Below, in pieces: positions 2,023-57,296 of a stretch of DNA of 64,000 nt (position 1 is the stretch's first letter; every line of letters begins with the position of its first letter). Below the pieces are notes generated by a model. It was not told the DNA's origin and ran no database searches. It saw nothing but the letters and a program-made list of their open reading frames with translations. The DNA comes from an uncultured Gammaproteobacteria bacterium (lineage in GTDB: Bacteria > Patescibacteriota > Patescibacteriia > UBA11705 > JABHMO01): NCBI GenBank assembly GCA_964590105.1, contig CAZPYM010000002.1:26697-90696 (forward strand), given 5' to 3'. A program made the position numbers and the translations under genes.

Positions 2023-2238
2023 AACATTATTCAATCATGACCGAAAAGCGGCCAGCGCTTCTTTGCCGTCTAATCGGGACATCAAAGTTGCGCCAAATTT
2101 TTTCAAATAAATATTCCGATTTAGATCCATTAGATTTTTATTTCATTCACAATATATTAAATCTACCCATTTTTGCAAATCTATGCAAATCGTCAAGTAA
2201 TCTATGCACGCTCTATTTTTATTAAATAAAATTTAATT

Positions 2239-2268
2239 AAAAAAGCCCGGTGAATCGTCACCGAGCTT
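2239..2268 (-). terminator. rho-independent terminator for the minus-strand operon ending at 2280
   Basis: Read on the minus strand: agctcggtga-cgat-tcaccgggct followed by tttttt. Confidence 0.55.
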
Positions 2269-2279
2269 CTTTGTTTGAA

Positions 2280-2876
2280 TCAGAGACCAATCTTCAAGCC
2301 GATCAATGTTCGAGCAAAGTCAAATTCAGTCTCTTCGGAATTAAGTGGCACCCAGGCCACCCAGGCAGTCATTTCCCAAAAGTTAAATTCCACCACCGGC
2401 CCGACTCCGGCCGGCCGGCGGTCTTTCACGCCGAGCGTCAGCCATTCCAGAGTTTTTACCCGCAATGTCAGATCGTACCAGACTTGCGAATCATCGCCAT
2501 CATAGGCAAGCCGTCCAACTTCCACCTGCCCGGTGAAGTTCACGCGTCCATTTTTCAGCCCGAGCAGATACGCTGTTTGAAGATCCATTCCCTCCGGCCC
2601 CTGCCGGCCACCGAGCGAAACTCCCAGTTGCAACCAATCAACCGGCTGCCAGATCGGGCCAAAATGCGCCTGCGCCCAGCCACTGTTCATGAGCGTGAAA
2701 AACCGCAGACTGAAATTCTCATTCAGCTTTACGGCCGCGCCCGCGTCAATGATCAGCTTGTCATGAACTTCCGGCGTCATGGTTTGCGTTTCGAAGAAAG
2801 CGCTGATTTGCGCCTGGGCCATTACCGGCAACAGCAAACACACAATAGAACCCAACACTGCCAAATACTTTGTCAT
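2280..2876 (-). CDS. secreted protein with signal peptide, unknown function; GC-rich gene
   Basis: N-terminus MTKYLAVLGSIVCLLLPVMAQAQ is a classic signal peptide. The rest has alternating hydrophobic pattern suggestive of beta structure. Local GC is clearly above the window background. Confidence 0.6.
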   Translation of the reverse strand: MTKYLAVLGSIVCLLLPVMAQAQISAFFETQTMTPEVHDKLIIDAGAAVKLNENFSLRFFTLMNSGWAQAHFGPIWQPVDWLQLGVSLGGRQGPEGMDLQTAYLLGLKNGRVNFTGQVEVGRLAYDGDDSQVWYDLTLRVKTLEWLTLGVKDRRPAGVGPVVEFNFWEMTAWVAWVPLNSEETEFDFARTLIGLKIGL

Positions 2877-2995
2877 TCTCCCCTCCTTAACGCGTTATTG
2901 CGCTTTTCCATTTTCACCATCACCCACCAAATCAAAAAAACAAATATTGCCGACATCACAAGAATCACAATCAATTCGGCTCCCGCCGTGAACAT
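2873..2995 (-). CDS. small membrane peptide (40 aa), translationally coupled
   Basis: ggaggtgtttcATG start. Translation is MFTAGAELIVILVMSAIFVFLIWWVMVKMEKRNNALRRGE, and its stop overlaps the ATG of the 2280..2876 gene (ATGA). Not in the ORF track because it is under 60 aa. Confidence 0.4.
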   Translation of the reverse strand: MFTAGAELIVILVMSAIFVFLIWWVMVKMEKRNNALRRGE

Positions 2996-9100: not shown

Positions 9101-9847
9101 ATGCTAATAAAAACTCTTCAGGAAATCGGACTTTCTCCAAACGAAGCCAAAATATATGAAGCTCTTTTGGAGCTGAAACAAGCCGGCGTCGGCACGATTT
9201 CCAGCCATTCGAAAATACACCGAAGAAATGTTTACGACACAATCTCCCGCCTGGTTGACAAGGGTCTGATCTTCCCGGTCATCGGCAAAGGAGAGAATAA
9301 ATATTCACCGGTTGACCCGGGAAAACTTCTGGAATTAGTCAAAGAAAAGGAAACAAGTCTACTCTCCATCCTGCCACTCATGAAACAAAAATATGAGGAG
9401 CGCAAAACTCCGCAGGAAGCTTATATTTATCGCGGCGTTGAAGGATTCAAAAATTACATGCGCGATATTTTGAAAGAAGGGCAGGATGTTTATTTTATCG
9501 GCGCCAAGCTGGGCTGGCTGGACCCGAGGATCAAAACATTTTTGAACAATTTTTTAACCCTGGCCAAGAAAAAGAAAATCAAATTCCACCACATCTTTGA
9601 CACGGAAGTAAAAGAAAAAACTCCTGCCAATGAATTAGCTGAGCTCGGCCCGAATCATCGCTTCATGCCCAAAGAATTTTCCACGGTTTCCGCCGCTGAT
9701 ATTTTCGGCGACTATGTTGTCACCTTTACCGGATTAAATTATAAAAAGATTGATGACGACGTGACTTTATTTGTCCTGCGCGACAAGGATCTGGCTGACA
9801 GTTACCGCACCTGGTGGAAATTTATGTTTAATAATTGTAATAAATAA
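9101..9847 (+). CDS. TrmB-family transcriptional regulator
   Basis: MLIKTLQEIGLSPNEAKIYEALLELKQAGVGTISSHSKIHRRNVYDTISRLVDKGLI. 248 aa, typical size, C-terminal YRTWWKFMF motif. Confidence 0.8.
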   Translation: MLIKTLQEIGLSPNEAKIYEALLELKQAGVGTISSHSKIHRRNVYDTISRLVDKGLIFPVIGKGENKYSPVDPGKLLELVKEKETSLLSILPLMKQKYEERKTPQEAYIYRGVEGFKNYMRDILKEGQDVYFIGAKLGWLDPRIKTFLNNFLTLAKKKKIKFHHIFDTEVKEKTPANELAELGPNHRFMPKEFSTVSAADIFGDYVVTFTGLNYKKIDDDVTLFVLRDKDLADSYRTWWKFMFNNCNK

Positions 9848-14172: not shown

Positions 14173-14373
14173 AAAATTATTTCTTTTAGTGTATTGTTCC
14201 GAGCGAGGAGAAACAACGCGTCGAAAAATGTCGGTAATTTCCGACTACATTTACATTATATCATACTATTATATCCCGTCAAGGTAACCGCGGTTTTTAT
14301 TTAATATTAGCCAATCATATTACTTAAAATTCACCACTCACCGACCACTACCCACCAAAAAGGTCGGTAATAA

Positions 14374-14402
14374 TTGACACTTTTGAAATTTTTTGCTATA
14401 AT
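14374..14402 (+). promoter_or_regulatory. sigma70-like promoter TTGACA-17-TATAAT for the GC-rich operon
   Basis: ttgacacttttgaaattttttgctataat. Inverted repeats ccgacc...ggtcgg (about 14341-14368) and tgtcgg-taattt-ccgaca (about 14231-14248) lie in the divergent intergenic region. Confidence 0.55.
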
Positions 14403-14458
14403 GCGCTGTTAAGATAAAGAAGTTCTTTTCATTACATCAACCATAAACGGGGGAAATC

Positions 14459-15397
14459 ATGAACTACGTTCAGCTGATTGAGAAAATGAAATCTGGCCTT
14501 GGGAAGTTATACAAGATGGCTCTAGATCTGGCCGCCATTCTGGACAGTGCGGCGGCGCAAGTAACAGAAGATGCAAGCCGCGGCTGGGAAGGACCGCGAG
14601 AGCAGAGACTTCGAACCTTCAACCTCCTGTGCGCTATCTGCGTCAAAGCCAACATTGCTCCTCCGAACTTGGAGGAAGGACTCTGGAGGGGAGCGCTTCC
14701 GCGAACTTACAACAAGGACCGCTTCGAACAGGCAAGGAAAGTCGCGCGAGAAACACGCCTCCGGGTACGCAAGCATCTGAAAGGACAAACCCGTCCCGCC
14801 GCGAACATGGCCCGCGCGCTCATGGAAACCATCAACCTTTTTCCGGATTGCGATGGCTTCACCGGCATCAACAAGGAAAACATCATGGCCATGCTCAACC
14901 GCCTTCTGGTGGACGAGCTCAGTCTCGCGCCCTTTCGGCCGGACTACAGCGCCATGACAATCCCCGACGTTCTGCATGCCGACGGTTCCGCCCGCCCTGC
15001 CACGGTCGTAATAGTTGACGACGATCCAAACGAACTGCTCAAGTCCGCGCTGACGCTGATCGGGATTCCAAATCTTGCGGTAAAATTCGTTCACTACAAA
15101 AGCGCTTCTGCCTGGAACAAACCACAAGGCCAGGAACTTCAGAACAAGCTCCTGGAAGTTGCCCGGTCTGTGCTGGAATTAACGCCGGACGTCATCGTGA
15201 TGGATCAGGGGCTCGGCGACATTGAAGGATCTGATCTTGTCACGACCATCAAGAACCAAAACCCGGAACACCGGCCAATCTTTGTCGCCAACACCGGCGG
15301 CGATCCGAACAAACTGCTCAATGCCGGCTGTCTCGATAACTTCGAGAAGGGTCGCGCTCCGAAAAGCATTCGACAGGCGATCAGCGCCGTCAATTAA
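14459..15397 (+). CDS. hypothetical protein with C-terminal receiver (REC/CheY-like) domain
   Basis: The C-terminus TVVIVDDDPNELL...PDVIVMDQGLGDIEGSDLV...PIFVANTGG...NFEKG has the DD, D, T and K positions of a receiver fold. The N-terminal ~170 aa are unassigned. GC is much higher than the window average. Confidence 0.6.
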   Translation: MNYVQLIEKMKSGLGKLYKMALDLAAILDSAAAQVTEDASRGWEGPREQRLRTFNLLCAICVKANIAPPNLEEGLWRGALPRTYNKDRFEQARKVARETRLRVRKHLKGQTRPAANMARALMETINLFPDCDGFTGINKENIMAMLNRLLVDELSLAPFRPDYSAMTIPDVLHADGSARPATVVIVDDDPNELLKSALTLIGIPNLAVKFVHYKSASAWNKPQGQELQNKLLEVARSVLELTPDVIVMDQGLGDIEGSDLVTTIKNQNPEHRPIFVANTGGDPNKLLNAGCLDNFEKGRAPKSIRQAISAVN

Positions 15398-15524
15398 AAA
15401 TCCAAAAAATATCTCGAGGGAAGTCACCATGTGGCTTCCCTCTTCAACCGCCGATTTCTTGGAAAAAGGAATCTGCAGTTGGAGATTTGTTCATTAAATT
15501 AAAAACAACCAAGAGGAGTCTGTC

Positions 15525-19992: not shown

Positions 19993-20188
19993 CTGCCTCC
20001 TCCCGCTATTAACTTGAAATCAATTCTCGACAGCCTACGCCAAACCGATTTTTCAAGCTTAACTCACGATTATTAAGTTGTCAACGACGAAAACTGGTCA
20101 CGTTAAGAATAATGTCCGACAATAAAATTGGCACACGCTATTATCACAAAAAAATAAAAGCCCGCTTTAGAAGCGAGCTTTGGATTGT

Positions 20189-20776
20189 CTAAATCGCCTT
20201 CACAATATCAGCGATAGCGGCCATAGCGCCGACGCCCACGTCACCGCAGGCGAGTTTGCGCGATACCGGCGGAACCAGACGAAGGTCATACCAAATCTTC
20301 AATTTCGCCAAATGTTCGTCCGTGACCGGATGCTCCCACATCTTCGTGTTCATGGCCGGCGCGATTATCACCGGTTTACTTCTGTCCCAAGCGCGCAGAA
20401 CGCATGTAAGAAGATTGTCGCAAATACCGTTCGCGGCCTTGGACAAAGTGTTGGCCGAAAGCGGCGCGATCACTATCGCGTCCGCCCAGTCGCGAAGCGC
20501 GATGTGCGGAATTGACTGATTCTTGCGGTAACGCAGGCTCGGCCACTCGTCAAAATCAGTCCAAATCCTTGCGCCAGATATATGCGGCAGTTTGCCCCAG
20601 CCGAACTTGGTTCTGAGCAATTGCCCCAGGAAAAACCAAAATGGCTTTTTCTGAAAATATCCGGCGCTGAAAGTTGAAACGATCTGCACCTCATGGCCGG
20701 CTTTTTCCAGTTCGCAAACCAGCTTCTCCGCAAGAGTGGCCGCCACGCTTCCGGTAATACCCAGCAGTATTTTCAT
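20189..20776 (-). CDS. coaC: phosphopantothenoylcysteine decarboxylase-like flavoprotein (CoaC / HFCD family)
   Basis: Block-wise alignment to the E. coli Dfp N-domain: KILLGITGSVAA, HIALRDWADAIVIAPLSANTLSKAANGICDNLLT, PVIIAPAMNTKMW, LACGDVGVGAM. Confidence 0.8.
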   Translation of the reverse strand: MKILLGITGSVAATLAEKLVCELEKAGHEVQIVSTFSAGYFQKKPFWFFLGQLLRTKFGWGKLPHISGARIWTDFDEWPSLRYRKNQSIPHIALRDWADAIVIAPLSANTLSKAANGICDNLLTCVLRAWDRSKPVIIAPAMNTKMWEHPVTDEHLAKLKIWYDLRLVPPVSRKLACGDVGVGAMAAIADIVKAI

Positions 20777-21495
20777 TTCAGCCTCCCCGCCAATGCTTCC
20801 GGCAATTCATCGCGACTAACGCTTTTCGCTTTTCCTTTGCGATCAATAATGTACGCGCGCTCGCGCGCCCATTCGAGGCAATTTGCCACAATCAGGTCAG
20901 CATCGGAAACTGCGCGACTGCGCCTCGCGATTTCAATCAACTCCTCGTCGCTCTTGCCGACTTCCAGCTTGAACTTGACGAGATTGCCTTTGAATCCCCA
21001 CTCTTTCCGAATCCTATCCACGATCTTGAAGGTTGGAACCATGCGCAAAAAAAGTTCCTGATGTTTGGAAGAAATCTTGGCGCTCGAATCAGCTTCTGTC
21101 AGTCGTTCGTCCGCGCCGCGCTCGAAAACGCCCGCCACCTGATAATCGCTAACCGCGGCGGAGTGAATTACTACATCATAGCCGCCGGTGCGAATTTCTT
21201 CTTCCATGATATCTGCCAATTCAGCAAAAGTCTTGTACAACAGCGCGCGAGGATGCCGTATTGGATCCCATGATGCCCCGCCTCCGCTCCGATATCGGTA
21301 TCCAGCCATGTATCGATCTTCGAACTCTTTGACAAGAAGCGGATTCGAAGTAACAAGTACAACCTCATTTTGATGGCCATTCCACGACAAATCGAAAGCG
21401 ATCTCCGTTCCCGTGCGGCCGTGAAAAATGTTCGTGATCGCCCGCACCTTATCGATCATCACCTGCGTAGAACCGGCGGTTACGAGAATTTTCAT
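20773..21495 (-). CDS. coaB: phosphopantothenate--cysteine ligase (CoaB) domain protein
   Basis: KILVTAGSTQVMIDKVRAITNIFHGRTG matches the Dfp C-domain I(L/M)ITAGPTREPIDPVRYISNxSSGKMG, plus IHSAAVSDY and DLIVAN. ATGA overlap with coaC. Confidence 0.75.
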   Translation of the reverse strand: MKILVTAGSTQVMIDKVRAITNIFHGRTGTEIAFDLSWNGHQNEVVLVTSNPLLVKEFEDRYMAGYRYRSGGGASWDPIRHPRALLYKTFAELADIMEEEIRTGGYDVVIHSAAVSDYQVAGVFERGADERLTEADSSAKISSKHQELFLRMVPTFKIVDRIRKEWGFKGNLVKFKLEVGKSDEELIEIARRSRAVSDADLIVANCLEWARERAYIIDRKGKAKSVSRDELPEALAGRLK

Positions 21496-21551
21496 TTCAC
21501 ACCTCCCGTTAATGTGGCCGTAAGGGCACGATTGGTAGCGCCCCTACGAAA

Positions 21552-21779
21552 TTAATCTTCAATGCCATTATTCGCGAAAATCGCGCCGAGCCACCGATTT
21601 GGAAAATCATCGCGCGTCAAGCCGTTTTCCTTGCCACACACCGCGCAATGAACCCAGAACTCGTGCGCATGACCATGACCGATGTCGCTGATTTTCACCT
21701 CTTCGCATTCAACGGCGAGAATACTCTTGCATTTCACGCAGGTAAGTTTCACCGTATCGTTATTTTTCAATACTCGCAT
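21552..21779 (-). CDS. small zinc-ribbon-like protein (CxxC...H...CxxC)
   Basis: LTCVKCKSILAVECEEV...HCAVCGKENG. Overlaps the upstream gene end by about 20 nt. Confidence 0.45.
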   Translation of the reverse strand: MRVLKNNDTVKLTCVKCKSILAVECEEVKISDIGHGHAHEFWVHCAVCGKENGLTRDDFPNRWLGAIFANNGIED

Positions 21780-22692
21780 TGTTCACCTCAAGGCGAAAAA
21801 GTTTCGTTGCATTTTTCCAATAAATATTCGCTTTCCCATCATCGCCGATTCCCCACGGATCTCCGGCATCCATATTATCGTCACACGCCCAAGGACCGGG
21901 ATGAATTGTACCGCCAAGAGATTCTACCAGCGCAATCGTATCTGCATACGATTGAATTGGGAAATCAGTGGCGAACATGAGCCGGTCGACTCCATTTGGC
22001 ACCAATGTGATAAAATGTTCAATTTCGGCGCGCAACGCTTCCTTTTCCTCCGGCGCATATTCGATCGTACCGGAAATGTCGGTATAAACATTCGGGCATA
22101 TGCGCATGAGATCTCGGAGCTCGCTAAAATGCGGATTACCAAGGTGCGCCACCACGAACTTCACGCGCGGAAATCGTTGCGCCGCGCCAAAGAATTGACT
22201 TGGCCGCGACAGATATTCCAGCTTGTCGAGCGGGCAGTCGGCAAAGCCGCAGCGCCTCTCGCTTGCATCGCTACAGCAGTGATGCAAGTAGCCGGAGTGA
22301 AGGATTACCGGCAGATTAAATTCTTCCGCCAACTCGTAAACCGGAAACGCAGTCACGCCGCTCGGCTTAAAATCTTGATATCCGGGATAAAGCTTGATGC
22401 CGACAATCCGCTTTTCTTGCGCCAGTCGGCGCAAACGCATTACGCCAAGCTCGACATTGCCCATCATGTCTAAACTGCCGCAAGCAACGAACAGTTTCCT
22501 ATCACCAATTCGCGTCAACAGTTCTTCGTTGTGCAAACCAGATCCCTTGAAAGGAAAGTACGTGGCCATTAGTACAATCTTTGTTACTCCGTGCTCTTCC
22601 GCTAATCTTTCCAGGTCCGCAATCGTCGCTGTTTCCGTGTGCAAATTCCACAACTTGTGATTCGTCGTATGCGCGTGGATATCGATGATCAT
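21760..22692 (-). CDS. metal-dependent amidohydrolase (TIM-barrel, amidohydrolase_2-like)
   Basis: MIIDIHAHT N-terminal metal-binding motif, with HSGY and D-containing strands later. Confidence 0.65.
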   Translation of the reverse strand: MIIDIHAHTTNHKLWNLHTETATIADLERLAEEHGVTKIVLMATYFPFKGSGLHNEELLTRIGDRKLFVACGSLDMMGNVELGVMRLRRLAQEKRIVGIKLYPGYQDFKPSGVTAFPVYELAEEFNLPVILHSGYLHHCCSDASERRCGFADCPLDKLEYLSRPSQFFGAAQRFPRVKFVVAHLGNPHFSELRDLMRICPNVYTDISGTIEYAPEEKEALRAEIEHFITLVPNGVDRLMFATDFPIQSYADTIALVESLGGTIHPGPWACDDNMDAGDPWGIGDDGKANIYWKNATKLFRLEVNNASIEK

Positions 22693-28196: not shown

Positions 28197-31049
28197 TTAT
28201 TCCACAATCACATTGATCGCCTCGGCGCGATGATGTTCGCCCGCCGGATCAATAATTTCAATATACAATTCATAACCGCCCTTTTCATACGCCGCATTCC
28301 AAGATAAATTTATTTCGTTTGAATCGGGAAAAATCACTGTGGCCACGCTATTGATCTGGCCGGTTTCTGTTTTTCGGTACAAAACATTTACTTTTTCGCT
28401 GGCCAATAAATCAGTTAAATGAATCTTCAAGGGAGTCGGGAAGTTTTGCTGCTGAAGAACCGTTCCATTAGCCGGGAAAGTCCAGCTGGCTTGCGGCGCG
28501 GAAGCATCAGATATAATATTCAGTTCAATCTGAGCTTCGTTTATGTTGCCAACATCATCATGCGCCACGGCCCGTAACTTGTGAAACCCCTTAACAAAAT
28601 AACTGCTAATCGGGTAATGCAAATTGTATGGCGACAACGAATTTGTTTGTAATAATTTATTATCCAAATAATAGTCCACGCGGGTGATTCCTCTGGCGGC
28701 AGACGCATTGACGCTGGCATCGAGGAATGATTCAGAAATAGTAGCGTTATTATTTGGACTGGTAATAAATATTGTCGGCTTATTGGCTTCCGTATGCAGA
28801 TCATCAAATTCGCTTGGCGGCTGGTTCGTCGTAAACTCTTTGCCGGCCTCTTCAGTCGCTGATTTCAACCATGACTGCACTGCCTCTTCCCAAAATTGGT
28901 ACTGATAATCAGCTTTTACCGGATCATCAGGCGCGCCGCCGCGCGGATCATCTTTGTAAACATACTGTAAAATGCAATGCGCGTCCATGAACTCTTTTTC
29001 TTCAATTGCTTCCGGCGGAGTCAGATCGGTTGCCAACTTGCCGCTATATTTATCAATTTTAATAATTTTTACCGGTGAAATTTCACCATCCAAAACAGGC
29101 TTACCGGTTTTTTCAATTTCAACTGCCGGGAAATTTTCCACTGCTGTTCCTTCCAGCGCTTTTTTCATATACTCATTCCAGATAGGCACCGCCACTACGC
29201 CGCCGGCTGCGCCTTTTTTCATTGCCGAATTATCATTGTTGCCAACCCAGACGCCTGTGGCAAGAGATGGAGTATATCCCATTGTCCAGGCATCACGGTA
29301 ATCATTGGTTGTGCCTGTTTTGGCGGCTACCGGCCGGCCGGGCAAGGTCAAATTACTGCCGGCACCAAAAACATAGGCGCGCGCGCTGTCGTCAGACAAA
29401 ATATTAGTAGTCAAATTGGCAATCTTCGCGTCAATGGCTTTTCTTTTTCTTTCTTCGAATTTAATAAGGACATTGCCCTTGCTGTCTTCAACTCGCAAAA
29501 TGGCTACCGGCGGATGATACACACCTTCATTAGCCAGAGTGGCAAAAGCGGCTGTGTGTTCCAGCAACCTGACTTCGCCTCCGCCAAGGACAAGGGATAA
29601 ACCAAAACGACTACGGTCTTCAAATGACGTATAACCGAATAATTCCAGGAGATCAATTACTTTTTGCACGCCCACCAAATAAATAGTTTTGACCGCCGGA
29701 ATATTCAGCGATCCGGCCAAGGCTTTCCTCATCGTCACCGGCCCATGTTCAACTAAATCATAATTTAGCGGATGATAATCTTTTATTTCTGTTTTGAAAG
29801 TTGTTTCCACATCATAGAGAACGGTATCGGGCGTATAGCCTTTTTGAAAAACGGCTGTATAAACCAAAGGCTTAATTGATGATCCAGGCTGGCGCAGACT
29901 CAAAGCCACATTAACATTTCCGTCATGCTCAATATCAAAATAATCCTTTGAACCAACCATGGCCAAAATCTGTCCAGTTCGTGGATCTAATGACACCAAA
30001 GAGGCATTATAAAAATTATATTGCGCGCCTTTATTTTCAACGCCATTTGTAACTGCCTGTTCGGCAATTTCTTGCTTTCCCAGATCCAGCGTAGTCACCA
30101 CTTTGAGGCCGCCGCTCTCAACCAGTTCGTCGCCGAGTTTTTCACTGAGAAGCTCTTTGACATACATTACAAAATGCGGCGCAGTGATTGATTGTTTTTT
30201 TAGAGCAAATTCAATTTTCTCCGCGGCCGCCGCTTTGGACTGCTCCTCGGTAATGTAACCATTGTCAACCATTTGGCCCAAAACATACTGTTGGCGCCCA
30301 AGTAATTCATCCTTATGGCTTCCAAACGGCGAATAATAGGTCGGCGCTTTTGGCAGGGCGGCAAGAACTGCCGCTTGCCCCAAGGTTAAATCTTCAACGT
30401 CCTGATTAAAATAAGTCTGGCTAGCGGACTGAACGCCGTACGAAACAGACCCGTACGGGATTTCGTTCAAATACATCTGCAAAATATCATCCTTAGAAAA
30501 AGCTTTTTCAATTTTATAAGACAGAATAAATTCTTTTATTTTCCTGGAAATTTTCCTTTCATTAGTTAAAATAGCGTTCTTAACAAATTGCTGAGTCAAA
30601 GTTGAACCACCGCGAGCTCTCTTGCCCATCAGGGGATCAACAATCGCCCCCTTGATCATCGCCAATATATTAAATCCGCTGTGTTCGTAAAAATGTTTGT
30701 CTTCCGCTGAAATAGTCGCCCATTTCACATAATCAGGAATATCCGATAGCTTGACCAAAGTTCTTTTTTGCTCGCCATGCACATCATAGAGAACTGTTTT
30801 TTCATCCCGATCATAAATCTTGGTGCTTTGCGCCAAATTTCTCTCTAAAATTTTATTCGGATCAGGCAATGACCGCGAATACCAGGCAAAGGCGCCAATC
30901 AGGTAAATTACAAACAAGAAAAAGCAAACCACTCCAAGCTTAAAAAGTTGGAAGAACCATCGTTTAAATTTTTTCTTCATCTGCCGACCAAATCTTTTTC
31001 TCTGATATTCTGGCCGATGACGGATGACTCGAAGTTGGGGGATAGGCAT
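28197..31049 (-). CDS. penicillin-binding protein 1A (transglycosylase + transpeptidase) with ~300-aa C-terminal extension
   Basis: GT51 motifs (EDKHFYEHSGF, RGGSTLTQQ), TP motifs (SSIKP, SLN, KTGT), an N-terminal TM helix, and a long C-terminal beta-rich tail. The start is ambiguous between 31049 and the MKKKFKRW ATG at about 30979. Confidence 0.85.
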   Translation of the reverse strand: MPIPQLRVIRHRPEYQRKRFGRQMKKKFKRWFFQLFKLGVVCFFLFVIYLIGAFAWYSRSLPDPNKILERNLAQSTKIYDRDEKTVLYDVHGEQKRTLVKLSDIPDYVKWATISAEDKHFYEHSGFNILAMIKGAIVDPLMGKRARGGSTLTQQFVKNAILTNERKISRKIKEFILSYKIEKAFSKDDILQMYLNEIPYGSVSYGVQSASQTYFNQDVEDLTLGQAAVLAALPKAPTYYSPFGSHKDELLGRQQYVLGQMVDNGYITEEQSKAAAAEKIEFALKKQSITAPHFVMYVKELLSEKLGDELVESGGLKVVTTLDLGKQEIAEQAVTNGVENKGAQYNFYNASLVSLDPRTGQILAMVGSKDYFDIEHDGNVNVALSLRQPGSSIKPLVYTAVFQKGYTPDTVLYDVETTFKTEIKDYHPLNYDLVEHGPVTMRKALAGSLNIPAVKTIYLVGVQKVIDLLELFGYTSFEDRSRFGLSLVLGGGEVRLLEHTAAFATLANEGVYHPPVAILRVEDSKGNVLIKFEERKRKAIDAKIANLTTNILSDDSARAYVFGAGSNLTLPGRPVAAKTGTTNDYRDAWTMGYTPSLATGVWVGNNDNSAMKKGAAGGVVAVPIWNEYMKKALEGTAVENFPAVEIEKTGKPVLDGEISPVKIIKIDKYSGKLATDLTPPEAIEEKEFMDAHCILQYVYKDDPRGGAPDDPVKADYQYQFWEEAVQSWLKSATEEAGKEFTTNQPPSEFDDLHTEANKPTIFITSPNNNATISESFLDASVNASAARGITRVDYYLDNKLLQTNSLSPYNLHYPISSYFVKGFHKLRAVAHDDVGNINEAQIELNIISDASAPQASWTFPANGTVLQQQNFPTPLKIHLTDLLASEKVNVLYRKTETGQINSVATVIFPDSNEINLSWNAAYEKGGYELYIEIIDPAGEHHRAEAINVIVE

Positions 31050-31221: not shown

Positions 31222-32151
31222 TTAAAACAGCATATCCAAAAATTTCTCAATCGGCTCGCGCTTTTTTCCATGAGTCGGGAAATGATGAAGCTGGACGCCC
31301 GGATCGCTATTTAATTCTATTATATATCTTTTTTTGTTAATGTCTTCAGCCAAATAATCAATACCAATCACATCTGTTTTTAAAAGCTTGGCAATGGTGA
31401 TTGCTTGTTTTTTTACTTCCGAAGATAATTCGTCCGTGCAGTCTCTTGACTCGCCGCCGGTATGAATATTGGCCGTCCCCCGCAATATAATTTTTTGATT
31501 TTCTTTCGGAACGTAATATAAACTTAATTTTTGCCCGGACAAAAACGCTTTCATGGGCTGATCAATGATAATCGGCTTTTTCCTCTGCTCCGGCGTTTCC
31601 TGCAAATTTTTTATGCTAATCAATTTTTTTATCGAATCCCTTCCATTACCGATTACATAAGCCGGAAATCTCTGAACCGCAAAAACGTTCTTATAATTTA
31701 TTACCAAAACCCTATGATCAACCCCCGGATAATATTTCTCAATGACCTTGCTGTGTTTTGTAAATTGATTTGCATAACGCCAGGCCTGCTTTAATTGCCG
31801 TACTGTTTCAATGCCCACCGAGATTCCTTTGCCTTGTTTCAATTTCATTGGCTTCACAACAACCTTTTTGTGTTTTTCAAGAAACTTTTTCGCTTCGCCG
31901 AATTCTTTTGTTTTGATCTGCGGCAGAACTGGAAATTTATTAATTTTCAAAAACTCTCTGGCCACAACCTTTGAACGAGCCAGCTCATATCCGCTGGCCG
32001 AAGAATTGTCACTGACAATTCCGCCGTATACTAAGTGTATTTGTTTCCCTTTGGATAAAACGCAAAAAGAATCATCAGATTCTAAAGTTTGACATTTAAT
32101 GCCTCTTTGTTTCGCGCGCCGGCATAAAAAAATTGTATGTTCGTTTTTCAT
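31222..32151 (-). CDS. ATP-grasp ligase, cyanophycin-synthetase-N-domain-like
   Basis: VVVKPMKLKQGKGI, AYVIGNG, NIHTGGESRDCTD, DVIGIDYL, and C-terminal QLHHFPTHGKKREPIEKFLDMLF, resembling the MHHxPxxGxPRxVAxAIxDxLF end of the CphA ATP-grasp domain. Confidence 0.65.
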   Translation of the reverse strand: MKNEHTIFLCRRAKQRGIKCQTLESDDSFCVLSKGKQIHLVYGGIVSDNSSASGYELARSKVVAREFLKINKFPVLPQIKTKEFGEAKKFLEKHKKVVVKPMKLKQGKGISVGIETVRQLKQAWRYANQFTKHSKVIEKYYPGVDHRVLVINYKNVFAVQRFPAYVIGNGRDSIKKLISIKNLQETPEQRKKPIIIDQPMKAFLSGQKLSLYYVPKENQKIILRGTANIHTGGESRDCTDELSSEVKKQAITIAKLLKTDVIGIDYLAEDINKKRYIIELNSDPGVQLHHFPTHGKKREPIEKFLDMLF

Positions 32152-32418
32152 GGGTTGTGACTTTCTGGCAATTGACTAGAAATCTACAATTTGTACTATT
32201 TCTCTTACAATACCATGCCCGCAGCAATGATTCAATATCCCCAGCAATGCTTGGAACCTTTGATTAAACCGTCTAGCACAAATAAAATCGGACGCTAACA
32301 ATTATGTTGGCATCCGATGAGTGTTAAAAACAAAGGACAAAAAAGCTAGAAGATCTAGGCATCCAAGCGCCCTGAACCACTCACTCCTTCGTCGCTCGGG
32401 TTCAGGGCAAGCAAAGCG

Positions 32419-32889
32419 CTACACACTTGCGAGGACTGCCGACGGACGATCGTCACCACAGTTACGGCCAAGCCAGTAGTAGTACCAGTCCCACCGCGAG
32501 CCACGCAAGCACAGGAATAGCACAAAGCGAAGACCACGAGGCGACCACAGGACAGTTCCTTCAAAACAAACATACTTTCCTTTCCAATGCTCGGGAATCA
32601 GATACGGATTATCCCACAGCGCTTTGAATACAGCCGCGTCCAGCCGAACATGACCAACCGCCTTGAGCCGCTTCAGCTTTTTCTCTCCCTGAATCGACCC
32701 GCCATCTTCCGGCCGGAGCATGTTCTCCAAGCGAATTTCGCTCAAGTCAATTTCTACGAGCGCGAGCGAACGCCCGTCCTGCTCGTCAATCTTCCAGCCT
32801 TTTTCACCGATGAAAACCGATGGATCAAACGGCTGGCTGCGGTCAATCACGAGCTTTGAACTCTGAAGTATCATCACCCGACCCCGCAA
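32419..32889 (-). CDS. hypothetical protein in a GC-rich insert
   Basis: ...GKYVCFEGTVLWSPRGLRFVLFLCLRGSRWDWYYYWLGRN. No family recognised. Local GC is far above neighbours. The true start may be the internal ATG at 32874. Confidence 0.4.
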   Translation of the reverse strand: MRGRVMILQSSKLVIDRSQPFDPSVFIGEKGWKIDEQDGRSLALVEIDLSEIRLENMLRPEDGGSIQGEKKLKRLKAVGHVRLDAAVFKALWDNPYLIPEHWKGKYVCFEGTVLWSPRGLRFVLFLCLRGSRWDWYYYWLGRNCGDDRPSAVLASV

Positions 32890-32938
32890 TTCTTCAAGAA
32901 TCGCCTAAACTCGGCGCCGACTTGAACAGGCTTCTCAA

Positions 32939-33038
32939 TCATCTCTTGCCGTCCAGCTCATCCCAATTAACCTTGCTGGCCAGAATGGCCATCAGATTAT
33001 GCTTATGGTACTGACCGACACTAACCGGCCTACTCATG
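32939..33038 (-). CDS. small ORF (32 aa) upstream of the previous gene
   Basis: gcggaggtgcgtcATG has a good SD. Translation is MSRPVSVGQYHKHNLMAILASKVNWDELDGKR. Coordinates are approximate to within 1 nt. Confidence 0.3.
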
Positions 33039-33277
33039 ACGCACCTCCGCGTTTACGCTGATCATGTTCCTCCCGCACTGCGCGGGACTCCATGACTAAC
33101 GCGATAGAAAAGATCAAGTTTCTTATTTACTTTAAGGTGTTATTATAATGCGCTATTTAAAAAATGTCAATGGCGGCTTGGCGTTTCGTTGCTAATATTA
33201 CCGTTTTTCATCGGTTACGAATTACGAATTGGCTACTAATATTCGTAGGAATGCGTAGATTCATAGCAGATTGGTAA

Positions 33278-34294
33278 TTAGTAGCCTTTTGTTTCAGGAA
33301 AAAGCTGGTCAATGATCGCGCCGGCCGCGTTTCTCGGTTCGCCGACATACGGAATGTGGTGCATCGAAATCATGGGAGAATCATTAACCTCAATAATAAT
33401 ATAATTTCGACTGGTTGGCTCGGCAGTAATATCTTTGGTTAAATAATCAATGCCCGCGAAAGCCAAACCGGGAATTGCCTGAATTATTTTAACTGCCAAT
33501 TTTTTTATCTTTGGATTAACAATATCAGTCGCGTCATAACTGTCGCCGCCAGTGGAGATATTTGAATTCACGCGTAAATAAACCAAATGGTCTTTTTCCA
33601 GAACGGTGGAAAGTTTTAATTTTTGTTTTTCCAAAAGCTCCCTAACTATATTATCAACTTTAATTTTTACCAGGCTTTTTTCATGTCCCCGGCCACGCCG
33701 CGGATCTTTGTTTTTCAGCTCAATCAATTGCTTGATCGAACGAATACCGTCGCCAACCACATTTGCCGGCACGCGATGAATGGCTGCCACATATCTTTCC
33801 CGGGTGGCGAAAATGCGATATTCCTCGCCGATAAATTCCTTTTCCACAATAACTGTTTTAAATAAGCCGGTTTTGAATTCTTTCAAAGCCCTTCGAACTT
33901 TGGCCTCTGAATCAAGTCCGACAAATACTTTTTTTCCCTGAATGCCACTCAGTGGCTTGATCACAACCGGATATTTTATTTTTCTGCAAAAATCTAAAAT
34001 TTCTTTTATTTTTCGATAATCAAAAACCCGGCTTCTGGCCACTTGAATTCCGGCCCGGCGGAAAAAATATTTTGCCAGTTCTTTGTTCCTCTGAATCCAA
34101 AAAGCAATGCAATCTGTTTCTGACGTTCTTTGCCCGACGATTACCTCCCTCCGTCCCTTGTATTGCAATTCTAAAAAACTTTTCTGGGACAAGATCCCGG
34201 ACTTAAATATCCGAACGACTTTTATACCTCTCTTTTCCGCTTCCGCTCCAATTAAGTAAGTACTAAAATAATTAAAATCTTTTTTGTTTAACAT
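33278..34294 (-). CDS. ATP-grasp ligase, cyanophycin-synthetase-N-domain-like (paralog of 31222..32151)
   Basis: YPVVIKPLSGIQGKKV, ANVVGDGIRSIKQLIELKNKDPRRGRGHEKSL, NISTGGDSYDATD, GIDYLTKDI, IEVNDSPMISMHHIPYVGEPRNAAGAIIDQLFP. This is the characteristic CphA ATP-grasp signature. Confidence 0.7.
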   Translation of the reverse strand: MLNKKDFNYFSTYLIGAEAEKRGIKVVRIFKSGILSQKSFLELQYKGRREVIVGQRTSETDCIAFWIQRNKELAKYFFRRAGIQVARSRVFDYRKIKEILDFCRKIKYPVVIKPLSGIQGKKVFVGLDSEAKVRRALKEFKTGLFKTVIVEKEFIGEEYRIFATRERYVAAIHRVPANVVGDGIRSIKQLIELKNKDPRRGRGHEKSLVKIKVDNIVRELLEKQKLKLSTVLEKDHLVYLRVNSNISTGGDSYDATDIVNPKIKKLAVKIIQAIPGLAFAGIDYLTKDITAEPTSRNYIIIEVNDSPMISMHHIPYVGEPRNAAGAIIDQLFPETKGY

Positions 34295-34355: not shown

Positions 34356-35213
34356 TTAGCAATTCTCCAGATATTTAACAATCTCTTCCGCAACATTGAT
34401 GCCGACAACCCGCGTGAATCGCTTAAACTTTGGTGAGCGATTGACTTCAAGCAACTTTTGCTGGTCGCCATCCCGAATAATGTCAACGCCAGCAATGTCA
34501 GTATTGGTGGCCTTGGCCGCTTTTAAAGCCAGTGCTTTCAATTCTTCGGTTAGAATAGCGGGCGTTGAACGCTTTTCCAAAGGAACCTTTTTTCTTTCCG
34601 AATTATAGTAGCTCATTCTTTGCATTACTCCCAGTATTTTATCGCCAACAACTAAAACGCGGAAGTAAAAATCAGCATTTACCTTTTTCTGAATTAAAAA
34701 TCGCTCAACCCTATTCTTTCTCTTGATAAAAAACTGTTCCAACCCTTTTTTTGTTTTAAATGAATAAATATTTCGGCTGTGCATGCCGTTTATGTCCTTA
34801 ATCAGAACCGGCCGCGGAATCTTTGTTAAATATCGGCTAAACTCTTCAAAAGTTGAAAAGTGAAAGGTGTCAACACAGGGAAGGTTTTCCTGAAAAAATT
34901 CAAACGACATGAACATTTTGTCAAATTCATAAGCCTTGTTGTACAGTTCGCGGTCAATCACTTCCGTGCCGGAGAACTTGAAGTAGCGAGCCAATGTTTT
35001 TGCCTTGGCAAAATACGGAGCAATGCCACGGAACAAGCAAACATCAAAATTTTCCAATTTTTCACCGCGCCAAAAGGCCTGCATTTTGTTATCCTTAACA
35101 ATCAATGAAATTTTATGCAAGGAAGTGCGCAGAACTTCATGGCCGCGCCTTTTCGCCTCGATCATTATTTGGTTATTTTCAATAGAGCGCGGTCCGATTA
35201 TCAATAGCTTCAT
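34356..35213 (-). CDS. RimK-like ATP-grasp ligase
   Basis: About 285 aa, with a C-terminal block DIAGVDIIRDGDQQKLLEVNRSPKFKRFTRVVGINVAEEIVKYLENC typical of RimK/GshB-type ATP-grasp. Confidence 0.65.
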   Translation of the reverse strand: MKLLIIGPRSIENNQIMIEAKRRGHEVLRTSLHKISLIVKDNKMQAFWRGEKLENFDVCLFRGIAPYFAKAKTLARYFKFSGTEVIDRELYNKAYEFDKMFMSFEFFQENLPCVDTFHFSTFEEFSRYLTKIPRPVLIKDINGMHSRNIYSFKTKKGLEQFFIKRKNRVERFLIQKKVNADFYFRVLVVGDKILGVMQRMSYYNSERKKVPLEKRSTPAILTEELKALALKAAKATNTDIAGVDIIRDGDQQKLLEVNRSPKFKRFTRVVGINVAEEIVKYLENC

Positions 35214-35449
35214 AAATGGGTTCGGGAAATTAAGTAAATTAGTGAATTGGCGAATTAGCGAATTAAGAGATTAAGAGAATTAAGGGATTAAGAGAATATA
35301 GAATCTCTCGCTTTACTATACTTTATTTAAATTTGATCTATAATTCGCGTCATTCGTGTGTTCCTTAGTCATTCGTGTTAATAACTAATTCACTTTCCTG
35401 TGTCAACCCGAACGAGGAGGAACGACGAGTCGAGGGTCGTGTTACCCCT

Positions 35450-36847
35450 TTACTTGGTAGGATCGATTAAAAATTTTTTCAAGTCCCGCCGGCCGACTAA
35501 AACCGGATATTTTAAATTTTCGCGCATAATCACCGAAGCATTGCTATTTATTTCCACTCCTTCAAGTTCGATCTTCAAAGGAATCTCCATTCGATAAGAA
35601 ACTCCATGACTGCTGAATGTTTTCGCAATAGCCACAATGTCAGGATGTTTTTCCAGTTCAAGCCAAACCTTTTTCCGGCTTAGCTCTGCCACTTCTTCCG
35701 CTGTCATGACGCGTTTGATATTAAATTTTTCATAATATTCAATGGCCTCACCAAAACCCAATTGTCTGGCCAGGTTTTCATCAATCGCCGTAATGCCGGC
35801 CCCAGTGTCCAACTTGGCTTCAATCGCCACCCATTGACCGTCTTTATCTTTAATTTTTATCGGGTTAATAATGCCCAGCACTCGCTTGCCGGTCATTTCC
35901 TCAACCTCGCTTTCAATTTCACCGCCAAAAAGTTCCTTGGCTACCGCAATTCCCTTTTTCACTGTTTTTATTTTCAATCCTTTTACCCGCAAAAGCCGAT
36001 CCTTGATCGGAGCTAAATTAGCAATCTGAATTGACAGTCCGGGATGCGCATTTAATTCCAAAATTACCGGCCCTTTTTCTCTGTCCATAGCAATGTCTAC
36101 GCCAACATAATTTAGACCACAGGCAACAGCAGCTTTGACAGCCAGTGTTAATATATTTTCCCAGTTTGGAATTTTGATCCCGCGCAAAGGCAATTTCATA
36201 TCAGGCAAATTCTCAATCAAACGATCATGATGAATCGCATAAGTGGTCACTCCGGTAGAAATATCAAGCCCAACGCAAATTCCGCCCTGATGCAAATTGG
36301 CTTTTCCTCTTGATTCCTTGGTAGGCAATCGAAGCATAGCCATCACAGGAACCTTATTGTAAACAATAACTCGAATATCCGGAATTCCTTTGTAACTATA
36401 TAGTTTAAATACGGGGTGAATTTTCAGTCTTTCTTCGAAAAAAGCCGCATCCGGCGCATTTGTTTTGGAATAATCACCGTCCAGAATATTGGAAACTCGA
36501 AGCATGATATCTTGCACACTCGCTTCGCGGTCAAGCGGTAATACCCACTTGCCATTTTTTTTCCGACCAAAAGTAACCATAATGCCCTCGCCGCCAAGTC
36601 CTTGATTTGGCTTTAAAACAAAACTTTTCGGCAGGGAGGCCCAGTCGAAATTATAAAATTCCTTGCGATTACGAATAGCCGCAATGATTCTTGACACCGG
36701 TAATTCATGCTTCACCAGAAGTCTTTTGGTGCGTAATTTTTCGTCAACCAATTTGATCTTCTTCTTGGAAGCGCCGGGCCGGACAAAAGTCAAATTCCTG
36801 GCATTCATGCCGAGAACCTGCTTACTTTTTTTCAGCCAACTCAACAT
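35450..36847 (-). CDS. RimK-like ATP-grasp fused to a retropepsin-like aspartic protease domain
   Basis: The N-terminal ATP-grasp carries LELNAHPGLSIQIANLAP. The C-terminal ~140 aa contain WVAIEAKLDTGAGITAIDENLARQLGF (D-T/S-G-A aspartic protease motif), the domain widely annotated as an ATP-dependent zinc protease partner of RimK. Confidence 0.7.
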   Translation of the reverse strand: MLSWLKKSKQVLGMNARNLTFVRPGASKKKIKLVDEKLRTKRLLVKHELPVSRIIAAIRNRKEFYNFDWASLPKSFVLKPNQGLGGEGIMVTFGRKKNGKWVLPLDREASVQDIMLRVSNILDGDYSKTNAPDAAFFEERLKIHPVFKLYSYKGIPDIRVIVYNKVPVMAMLRLPTKESRGKANLHQGGICVGLDISTGVTTYAIHHDRLIENLPDMKLPLRGIKIPNWENILTLAVKAAVACGLNYVGVDIAMDREKGPVILELNAHPGLSIQIANLAPIKDRLLRVKGLKIKTVKKGIAVAKELFGGEIESEVEEMTGKRVLGIINPIKIKDKDGQWVAIEAKLDTGAGITAIDENLARQLGFGEAIEYYEKFNIKRVMTAEEVAELSRKKVWLELEKHPDIVAIAKTFSSHGVSYRMEIPLKIELEGVEINSNASVIMRENLKYPVLVGRRDLKKFLIDPTK

Positions 36848-57206: not shown

Positions 57207-57296
57207 TGGCGGAGAGGGAGGGATTCGAACCCTCGACGCCCTTGCGGACGTAACGGTTTTCGAGACCGTCCCATTCAACCACTCTGGCACCTCTCC
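57207..57296 (-). tRNA. tRNA-Ser (anticodon CGA), type II, CCA encoded
   Basis: Minus-strand RNA: GGAGAGG-UG-CCAGAGUGGUUGAAUGGGACGG-UCUCGAAAACCGU(anticodon loop CUCGAAA)-UACGUCCGCAAGGGCGUC(long variable arm)-GAGGGUUCGAAUCCCUC-CCUCUCC-G-CCA. Confidence 0.85.

Follow-up and report, generated by a model that had tools for sequence, protein, structure and literature searches.

A frameshifted putative target gene of a diversity-generating retroelement, inserted between two ATP-grasp genes in an uncultured Patescibacteria genome

In an uncultured bacterium placed by GTDB in the Patescibacteriota (assembly GCA_964590105.1, contig CAZPYM010000002.1), a GC-rich segment lies between two genes for RimK-like ATP-grasp proteins. 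We describe this segment here as the site of a broken gene, which very probably belongs to the small target (variable) proteins of the diversity-generating retroelements (DGRs) of Patescibacteria, the candidate phyla radiation (CPR). The 64,000-nt stretch that was analysed is called the window, and coordinates given without a locus name refer to it; L and P numbers denote homologous loci and proteins. The flanking genes, of 338 aa (33278-34294) and 309 aa (31222-32151), lie directly upstream and directly downstream of the segment, respectively, and both are on the minus strand. The span of the inserted gene (32419-33037, minus strand) has a GC content of 0.53 against 0.41 in its flanks; 200-nt windows over 32300-33100 give 0.50-0.56, compared with ~0.36-0.44 on either side, and a GC content this high is reached by only 1.7% of 620-nt windows across the 64 kb. 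The open reading frames (ORFs) of the insert are all on the minus strand, in three frames. The first, of 32 aa (33037-32939), has an ATG preceded at 7 nt by GGAGG; the largest, of 156 aa (32889-32419), lies 49 nt from it and has the C-terminal end ...RGSRWDWYYYWLGRNCGDDRPSAVLASV. An earlier note on this DNA, made from the sequence alone, had reported the raised GC content, the small ORF with its good Shine-Dalgarno sequence, the larger ORF and the ATP-grasp neighbours, and in all of these it was right. It had overlooked an ORF of 22 aa (32942-32874), which bridges the other two, overlapping the stop of the 32-aa ORF as ATGA and the ATG of the large ORF as TGATG.

The three ORFs appear to be one gene split by two frameshifts, and we put the probability that this is correct, and that the family assignment made below is also right, at roughly 85%. 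A search with the 156-aa ORF returned 50 uncharacterised metagenome proteins, nearly all of 196-238 aa, whose N-termini resemble the two small ORFs of the window; P0003, for example, starts MSKPVSIGQSHNLMAILASKVRWDELDGEVVQREMIEKPDRVVAEFMRFLKNRGQVIVASSKLVIDR. The intact homologues that are matched end to end by the three ORFs are single Patescibacteria proteins of 204-225 aa, and every intact homologue is a single ORF. When P0003 was compared with the window by tblastn, its residues 1-29, 32-54 and 53-202 were found collinear in three frames, at identities of 77% (fragment 1), 70% (fragment 2) and 69% (core). The two-ORF module of the earlier note is thus replaced by collinear fragments of one gene, the small-plus-large layout being what a single frameshifted gene leaves behind. 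A DNA alignment with L006, the closest intact locus, places a 13-nt deletion after GACGGC (~32948/32947) and a 2-nt insertion at ~32883. Fragment 1 (32939-33037, 32 aa and a stop), with which the N-terminal helical module begins, stops three codons past the deletion. Fragment 2 (32874-32942, 22 aa, MIEKPVQVGAEFRRFLKNCGVG, and a stop), in the second frame, begins at the ancestral Met codon and ends with a TGA just after the insertion. Fragment 3 (32419-32889), in the third frame, is the conserved core, of 156 aa if read from the TTG at 32889 or 151 aa from the ATG at 32874. The frameshifted stretch of ~1 kb is 100% identical in seven independent assemblies (two from Logan, three from ENA and two from JGI), which indicates that the frameshifts are real and fixed in the population.

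The nature of the gene is indicated by its relatives. P0020 (at L008) and P0035 (at L009) are encoded directly upstream of bAvd and RVT_1 genes, the latter for a reverse transcriptase (RT), and a copy of the final ~125 nt of the target gene is found at each locus ~320 nt downstream, as a template repeat (TR). The two copies differ at 17 positions in L008 and 25 in L009, of which 16 and 24, respectively, are adenines in the downstream copy. Such adenine-specific mismatches between TR and variable region (VR), next to Avd and RT, mark the family as one of DGR targets. When one genome per GTDB species was scanned, 61 loci were found, 60 of them with a family match; all are labelled Patescibacteria except for two probably mis-binned metagenome-assembled genomes and several labelled only as 'bacterium'. 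An RT is present at 23 of the 60 family loci, in 20 cases ~0.85-0.95 kb downstream of the gene; at 25 of the 60 it is absent even though at least 3 kb is available on both sides. An adenine-biased template was found at 22 of the scanned loci; when these are pooled with L008 and L009, 413 of 433 TR/VR mismatches (95%, 24 loci) fall at template adenines, by which the possibility that the templates are ordinary duplications without adenine bias was ruled out.

The window protein matches P0002-P0050 with E-values of 1e-23 to 1e-60, and the family comprises 3,324 representatives at 50% identity with E <=1e-3, or 489 at E <=1e-30. In the protein alignment, invariant W, L, G, R and V scaffold residues are interleaved with hypervariable columns. 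No match was obtained when the ORFs were scanned against Pfam, PHROGs, PADLOC and NCBIfam, or when all 50 members of the alignment were compared with Pfam, and a profile search against PDB sequences gave one spurious match only (E = 1.2). Core-only relatives of ~145-160 aa are common, although some may be fragments, as P0001 is. Three loci have a downstream template (L018 10810-10936, L029 10834-10959 and L064 10793-10919, with 15/17, 9/9 and 13/15 mismatches at A), yet tblastn finds neither RT nor Avd in their fetched flanks. In a comparison that looked for VRs homogenised by a shared template among paralogues from the same genome (L051/L052/L056; L055/L057), VR identity was not above upstream identity. 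The tandem target paralogues of L007 (1-318 and 825-1116; P0003/P0004-like and P0005) are 94% identical outside the VR and 80% within it. Each of them has an insertion of 27-29 nt within the end of the VR that resembles the initiation of mutagenic homing (IMH) sequence; this insertion contains the palindrome CCTCGATAAACTCGAGG and resembles a partial duplication of the VR end.

In the window, the region equivalent to the VR comprises the last 43 codons (32422-32550, minus strand), in register with the 24 templates. Its codons are diversified where the family templates carry AAC, and it is poor in adenine (only 10% A). The VRs read at their end ..GC(A/G)AGT, whereas 19 of the 24 templates end ..GCAA followed by C or A; in this comparison the IMH-like 3' end of the window copy (CCGTCGGCAGTCCTCGCAAGT, 32425-32445, minus strand) keeps the VR type, ..GCAAGT. 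The partners seen at L008 and L009 are not found nearby: tblastn of the 64-kb window with the RT and Avd proteins of these two loci gave nothing better than E = 1.2, and blastn found no second copy of 32340-32650, and hence no cognate template, within the same 64 kb. Nor is there a second family member on the 594-kb contig among the 50 matches listed for the 156-aa ORF.

Structure prediction is consistent with this family assignment. The AlphaFold model of the window core (pLDDT 93, pTM 0.86) has the order beta1-alpha1-alpha2-beta2-beta3-beta4-beta5, with the VR on the four last strands. The C-type lectin (CLec) topology of DGR variable proteins has been described as a strand, two helices and four VR-bearing strands (PMC5006420), and the core is predicted to be a C-type-lectin-like domain. 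In the model of intact P0003 (pLDDT 90), a module of three helices at the N-terminus is joined by a linker to the core domain; fragment 1 corresponds to helix 1 of the module, so that the first frameshift falls after this helix, and the second falls in the linker.

The closest described system is that of the CPR DGR targets (clade 2 of Roux et al. 2021, PMC8144416; the 'CPR set' of Wu et al. 2018, PMC5758913), which have been reported to lack recognisable domains (PMC8144416; PMC5758913). The window protein resembles them in having homologues at 45-69% identity within target-TR-Avd-RT cassettes with adenine-specific mismatches, and in being small, without a recognisable Pfam domain or a transmembrane segment, with its VR at the extreme C-terminus. 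It differs in that it lacks an RT, Avd and template in the 64 kb, carries two frameshifts, is invariant between samples and sits in an ATP-grasp cluster. Mtd of Bordetella phage BPP-1, TvpA of Treponema and AvpA of Nanoarchaeota, DGR variable proteins whose C-type-lectin fold has been solved, share with it the CLec order of elements, as predicted here (PMC5006420), and the placing of variable residues on the last strands and loops; the best fold matches in the PDB are C-type lectins, not significantly so. A VR gene away from any RT also recalls the remote DGR targets of Treponema and Legionella (Wu et al. 2018, PMC5758913), although the remote targets in that survey were confined to non-CPR lineages.

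The segment is a real insertion of ~1.06 kb between the two ATP-grasp genes, as the earlier note had supposed. Orthologues of both flanking genes are only 11 nt apart in a JGI contig, L075 (70% and 61% identity, the latter for the orthologue of the 309-aa gene), and ~100 nt apart in another, L076, compared with a spacing of 1,126 nt in the window. A 22-nt imperfect direct repeat (18/22 identical) brackets 1,060 bp. Its downstream copy (32142-32163, minus strand) is the true start of the 309-aa ATP-grasp gene, and its upstream copy (33202-33223, minus strand) duplicates the ribosome-binding site (RBS) and ATGAAAAACG of that gene. The repeat covers the RBS and the first 10 nt of the 309-aa gene, and its upstream copy opens an ORF of 14 codons that runs into the promoter of the insert. 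A 19-nt inverted repeat (74% complementary) near the ends of the insert was considered as a pair of terminal inverted repeats and rejected; it is placed asymmetrically to the direct repeats. In the closest relatives with the gene, L006, L007 and L017, it occupies other intergenic sites of the same cluster: it follows RimK in L006 and L007, and ATPgrasp_ST plus an IVP-like gene in L017, while L074 and L077 have the cluster without it. The gene is therefore not a conserved core gene always found at this point, a possibility that the earlier note had allowed for; it is absent from the position in relatives and lies elsewhere in L006, L007 and L017.

The composition of the segment had also been read as foreign, and here a different view is required. 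The gene is more GC-rich than its flanks at 59 of 61 family loci, by a mean of 11.5 points, so that a raised GC content characterises the family as a whole and is not evidence of recent transfer. The excess amounts to 18 points in the VR and 8.8 elsewhere in the gene; the RT adjacent to the target is 3.8 points less GC-rich than the flanks. Further GC-rich patches in the window (2201-2900, 14351-15500 and 20151-22400) hold no family member, and the ORFs examined in the latter two are ordinary (response-regulator-like, CoaBC-like flavoprotein and amidohydrolase).

Upstream of the gene there is a sigma-70-type promoter (33142-33170, minus strand), with TTGACA and TATAAT separated by a 17-nt spacer and a match at 12/12 consensus positions; promoters of similar strength are also recognisable ahead of the homologues in L011, L012 and L017. 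It is followed by a structured 5' leader (33044-33108, minus strand), a three-tier hairpin that reaches the GGAGG RBS (33048-33044). The stems are an outer GCGU/AGCG, a middle GUCAUG/CAUGAU and an inner hairpin CCCGC/GCGGG. The same architecture appears in minimum-free-energy folds of 14 loci, among them L006 (4380-4443), L008 (6890-6950), L009 (6928-6992), L011 (953-1013), L012 (9780-9841) and L017 (9777-9841), as well as L026, L031, L037, L059, L062, L063 and L068. RNAalifold on five close leaders gave four pairs with compensatory changes, and in the inner helix such changes are seen at 5/6 pairs. A covariance model built from these five leaders (R1) was too narrow; one built from the 14 (R2) matches only these 14 sites in 1.1 Mb and found no further members. 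In the alignment fitted to the model, 77.8% of cells are paired, against 33-56% when the partner strand is slid, and two-sided changes are found in 25 cells against 8-14; the pairing score was reached by 0/500 shuffles. Rfam has no match to the leader at its gathering threshold, nor at E <=10 over 33040-33110. A sub-threshold Rfam match to a flavivirus frameshift element within the gene (32943-32999, E = 0.96) was dismissed as chance. A second and different long hairpin (GCCATAGCTGAAAG, a loop and CTTTCCCAGCTATGGC, with variants) lies ~40-110 nt upstream of the target start codon in L016, L023, L029, L033, L035, L036, L040, L043, L045, L049, L060 and L061; both types of leader seem to be present in L059 and L068.

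On the 3' side, a hairpin with a perfect 10-bp stem and a 20-nt loop (32369-32408, not assigned to a strand; arms 32369-32378 and 32399-32408) begins 10 nt past the stop codon, and beyond it lies a 3' tail (32330-32368, minus strand) with CTTWG-type repeats (GCTTGG, CCTTTG), the palindrome CTAGATCTTCTAG and a T6 run. Both the hairpin and the second small palindrome (ctagaagatctag, 32347-32359, followed on the minus strand by the T6) are present as the earlier note described them. The hairpin is a lineage-specific insertion of 42 nt relative to L006, with GCTT on each side, and is found only in assemblies of this organism. Its z-score is -2.3 when folded as DNA and -0.96 as RNA, and similar perfect inverted repeats of 10 bp number ~14 in the window, most of them terminators with A and T tracts on their sides. 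A terminator scan over 32330-32410 flagged nothing; the hairpin differs from an intrinsic terminator in that its loop is of 20 nt, not 3-8 nt, and no T-run adjoins the stem, the T6 following a weak 5-bp palindrome only. Most homologous loci have a canonical terminator 50-70 nt past the stop. DGR target hairpins have stems of 7-10 bp and a 4-nt GRNA loop, and lie 4-34 bp from the VR (Guo et al. 2011, PMC3240598); enlarging the BPP-1 loop by 2 nt abolished function (PMC3240598). The window hairpin is like these in its GC-rich 10-bp stem and its position 10 nt downstream of the VR, and unlike them in the length of its loop and in its absence from the closest homologue, L006. Its role is probably that of a stem-loop at the transcript end or at the target site. 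The motif CTT[ATG]G occurs after the stop codon 2.0 times per 60 nt in 63 family loci, against a background of 0.19 (~11-fold), and three times in the window tail once the hairpin insertion is removed. The CTT[ATG]G/CCTTTG motifs may be a target-side cis element of this DGR clade, and the leader, absent from Rfam, and the CTTWG-rich 3' flank together are candidate cis elements.

Some features of the surrounding cluster may be noted in their own right. The cluster adjoins PBP1A (28197-31049), and its upstream part (34356-36847; L001 389-2029) encodes an ATPgrasp_ST protein fused to a retropepsin-like or Zn-protease-like C-terminal region, together with a PKD/7TM-transglutaminase protein. The two small ATP-grasp genes (window; L006 5273-7164; L007 1280-3216) exist in two versions that are 33-40% identical, while identity is 72-80% for the RimK, ATPgrasp_ST and PBP1A genes next to them; the version of the window is found in L075 and L076, and the other in L074 and L077. 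In L017 (Ca. Kuenenbacteria), the gene at 9250-9640, between ATPgrasp_ST and the target, is 23S-rRNA-IVP-like (Avd-related, a four-helix bundle) and is bordered by AAGAAA/CAAGAAAT-type repeats in inverted orientation. A tRNA gene at 57210-57296 (minus strand) is the sole Rfam match at gathering threshold in the window.

Taken together, the insert would constitute one transcription unit of promoter, structured leader, gene and 3' tail. In the intact relatives, the template repeat ~320 nt downstream of the gene would be transcribed and then copied by the RT with Avd, which would misread its adenines; the cDNA would replace the last ~125 nt of the gene, so that about a dozen surface codons of the C-type-lectin-like domain would be randomised, giving a reprogrammable binding protein. 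In the window copy, for which no RT, Avd or template was found within the 64 kb, the two frameshifts separate the N-terminal three-helix module from the core. Most likely, then, this copy is an orphan that is no longer diversified, either a pseudogene of recent origin or, at most, a protein reduced to its core. That it is currently inactive is suggested by the identity of its VR in the seven assemblies and by the lack of a second family member among the 50 matches listed.

It should be said that several observations weigh against the interpretation given here. The sequences that agree at 100% across the VR are consensus sequences only, in which minority variants are possible, and the search for DGR machinery covers 64 kb of a 594-kb contig, so that a remote DGR is possible. 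The N-terminal fragments show no less conservation than the core (77% and 70% against 69%), stop and start overlap exactly at both frame junctions, in one case through an ATT-to-ATG change, and core-only relatives of ~150 aa are common; on these grounds, the core may still be expressed. The 20-nt loop of the hairpin is unlike the GRNA loop of DGR target hairpins (PMC3240598), and the Foldseek matches to C-type lectin domains, which rank highest for both models, reach only E 0.15-0.35. A rival suggestion is that the copy is a working remote target, its VR rewritten in trans by a DGR elsewhere in the genome and its product made either as the core alone or as three pieces coupled by termination-reinitiation. 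We consider this unlikely. In its favour are the perfect promoter, the intact leader and the intact RBS, the ATGA and TGATG overlaps at the frame junctions, and the existence of natural homologues that consist of a core alone (~145-160 aa). The copy has kept a 3' end of the VR type and, beyond it, the CTTWG flank, copies without an RT are common (25/60 loci, with at least 3 kb available on both sides), and other DGRs have documented remote targets (PMC5758913). Against this, the VR is the same in seven assemblies from different samples, and RT, Avd and template were not found within 64 kb. A canonical DGR of this family carries an adjacent target, and no other family member is seen on the 594-kb contig among the 50 matches listed; moreover, Wu et al. 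saw remote targets only outside the CPR set (PMC5758913). It has to be considered also whether the RT-less copies in general are self-contained mobile cassettes, each made up of a strong promoter, the covarying three-tier leader hairpin, the gene and a 3' flank with CTTWG repeats, that move between intergenic sites, with a 22-bp target duplication here, and can be addressed in trans, the window copy being a live, split-expressed remote target. We regard this more far-reaching proposal as doubtful. If it were true, the leader and 3' repeats would act in cis, in the control of expression and the recognition of the target, as elements not described before.

Alternatively, the gene might be a domesticated, undiversified paralogue that serves the ATP-grasp/7TM-transglutaminase/PBP1A cell-envelope cluster, since the four closest members (the window, L006, L007 and L017) all lie inside this cluster without an RT. 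This is improbable: the gene is found at three distinct intergenic sites and is missing from L074-L077, it carries a promoter and a transcript end of its own and is frameshifted here, and the L007 tandem copies differ by 20% in the VR against 6% elsewhere, which is a pattern of diversification. The toxin-antitoxin or abortive-infection cassette of a small and a large ORF proposed in the earlier note drew on the ORF layout, the insertion and the unusual composition only, and is now hardly credible. The ORFs are collinear fragments of a gene that is a single ORF in every intact homologue, and what accompanies the family in genomes is an RT, Avd and a template repeat. PADLOC gives no match at E <=1, PHROGs none, and Pfam and NCBIfam no toxin-antitoxin domain. 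Finally, frameshifts can in general arise as assembly or sequencing errors, which would leave the gene intact; this consideration is a general one and nothing more, and in the present case it is extremely improbable, given ~1 kb of sequence that is 100% identical in seven independent short-read assemblies and changes (a 13-nt deletion and a 2-nt insertion) that are not homopolymer slips.

The preferred reading, a broken and undiversified DGR variable-protein gene, thus replaces the toxin-antitoxin or abortive-infection label by a specific and testable one. On this reading the copy, decayed or orphaned and without an RT nearby, belongs to a kind of system already known, that of the CPR DGR variable proteins. 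For DGR biology, it would be a dated example of target-gene decay, in which fixed frameshifts go together with N-terminal pieces that retain 70-77% identity to an intact homologue. It also draws attention to the ~40% of sampled members of this family of ~3,300 clusters that have no adjacent RT, copies that are missed by surveys demanding an RT beside the VR (PMC8144416).

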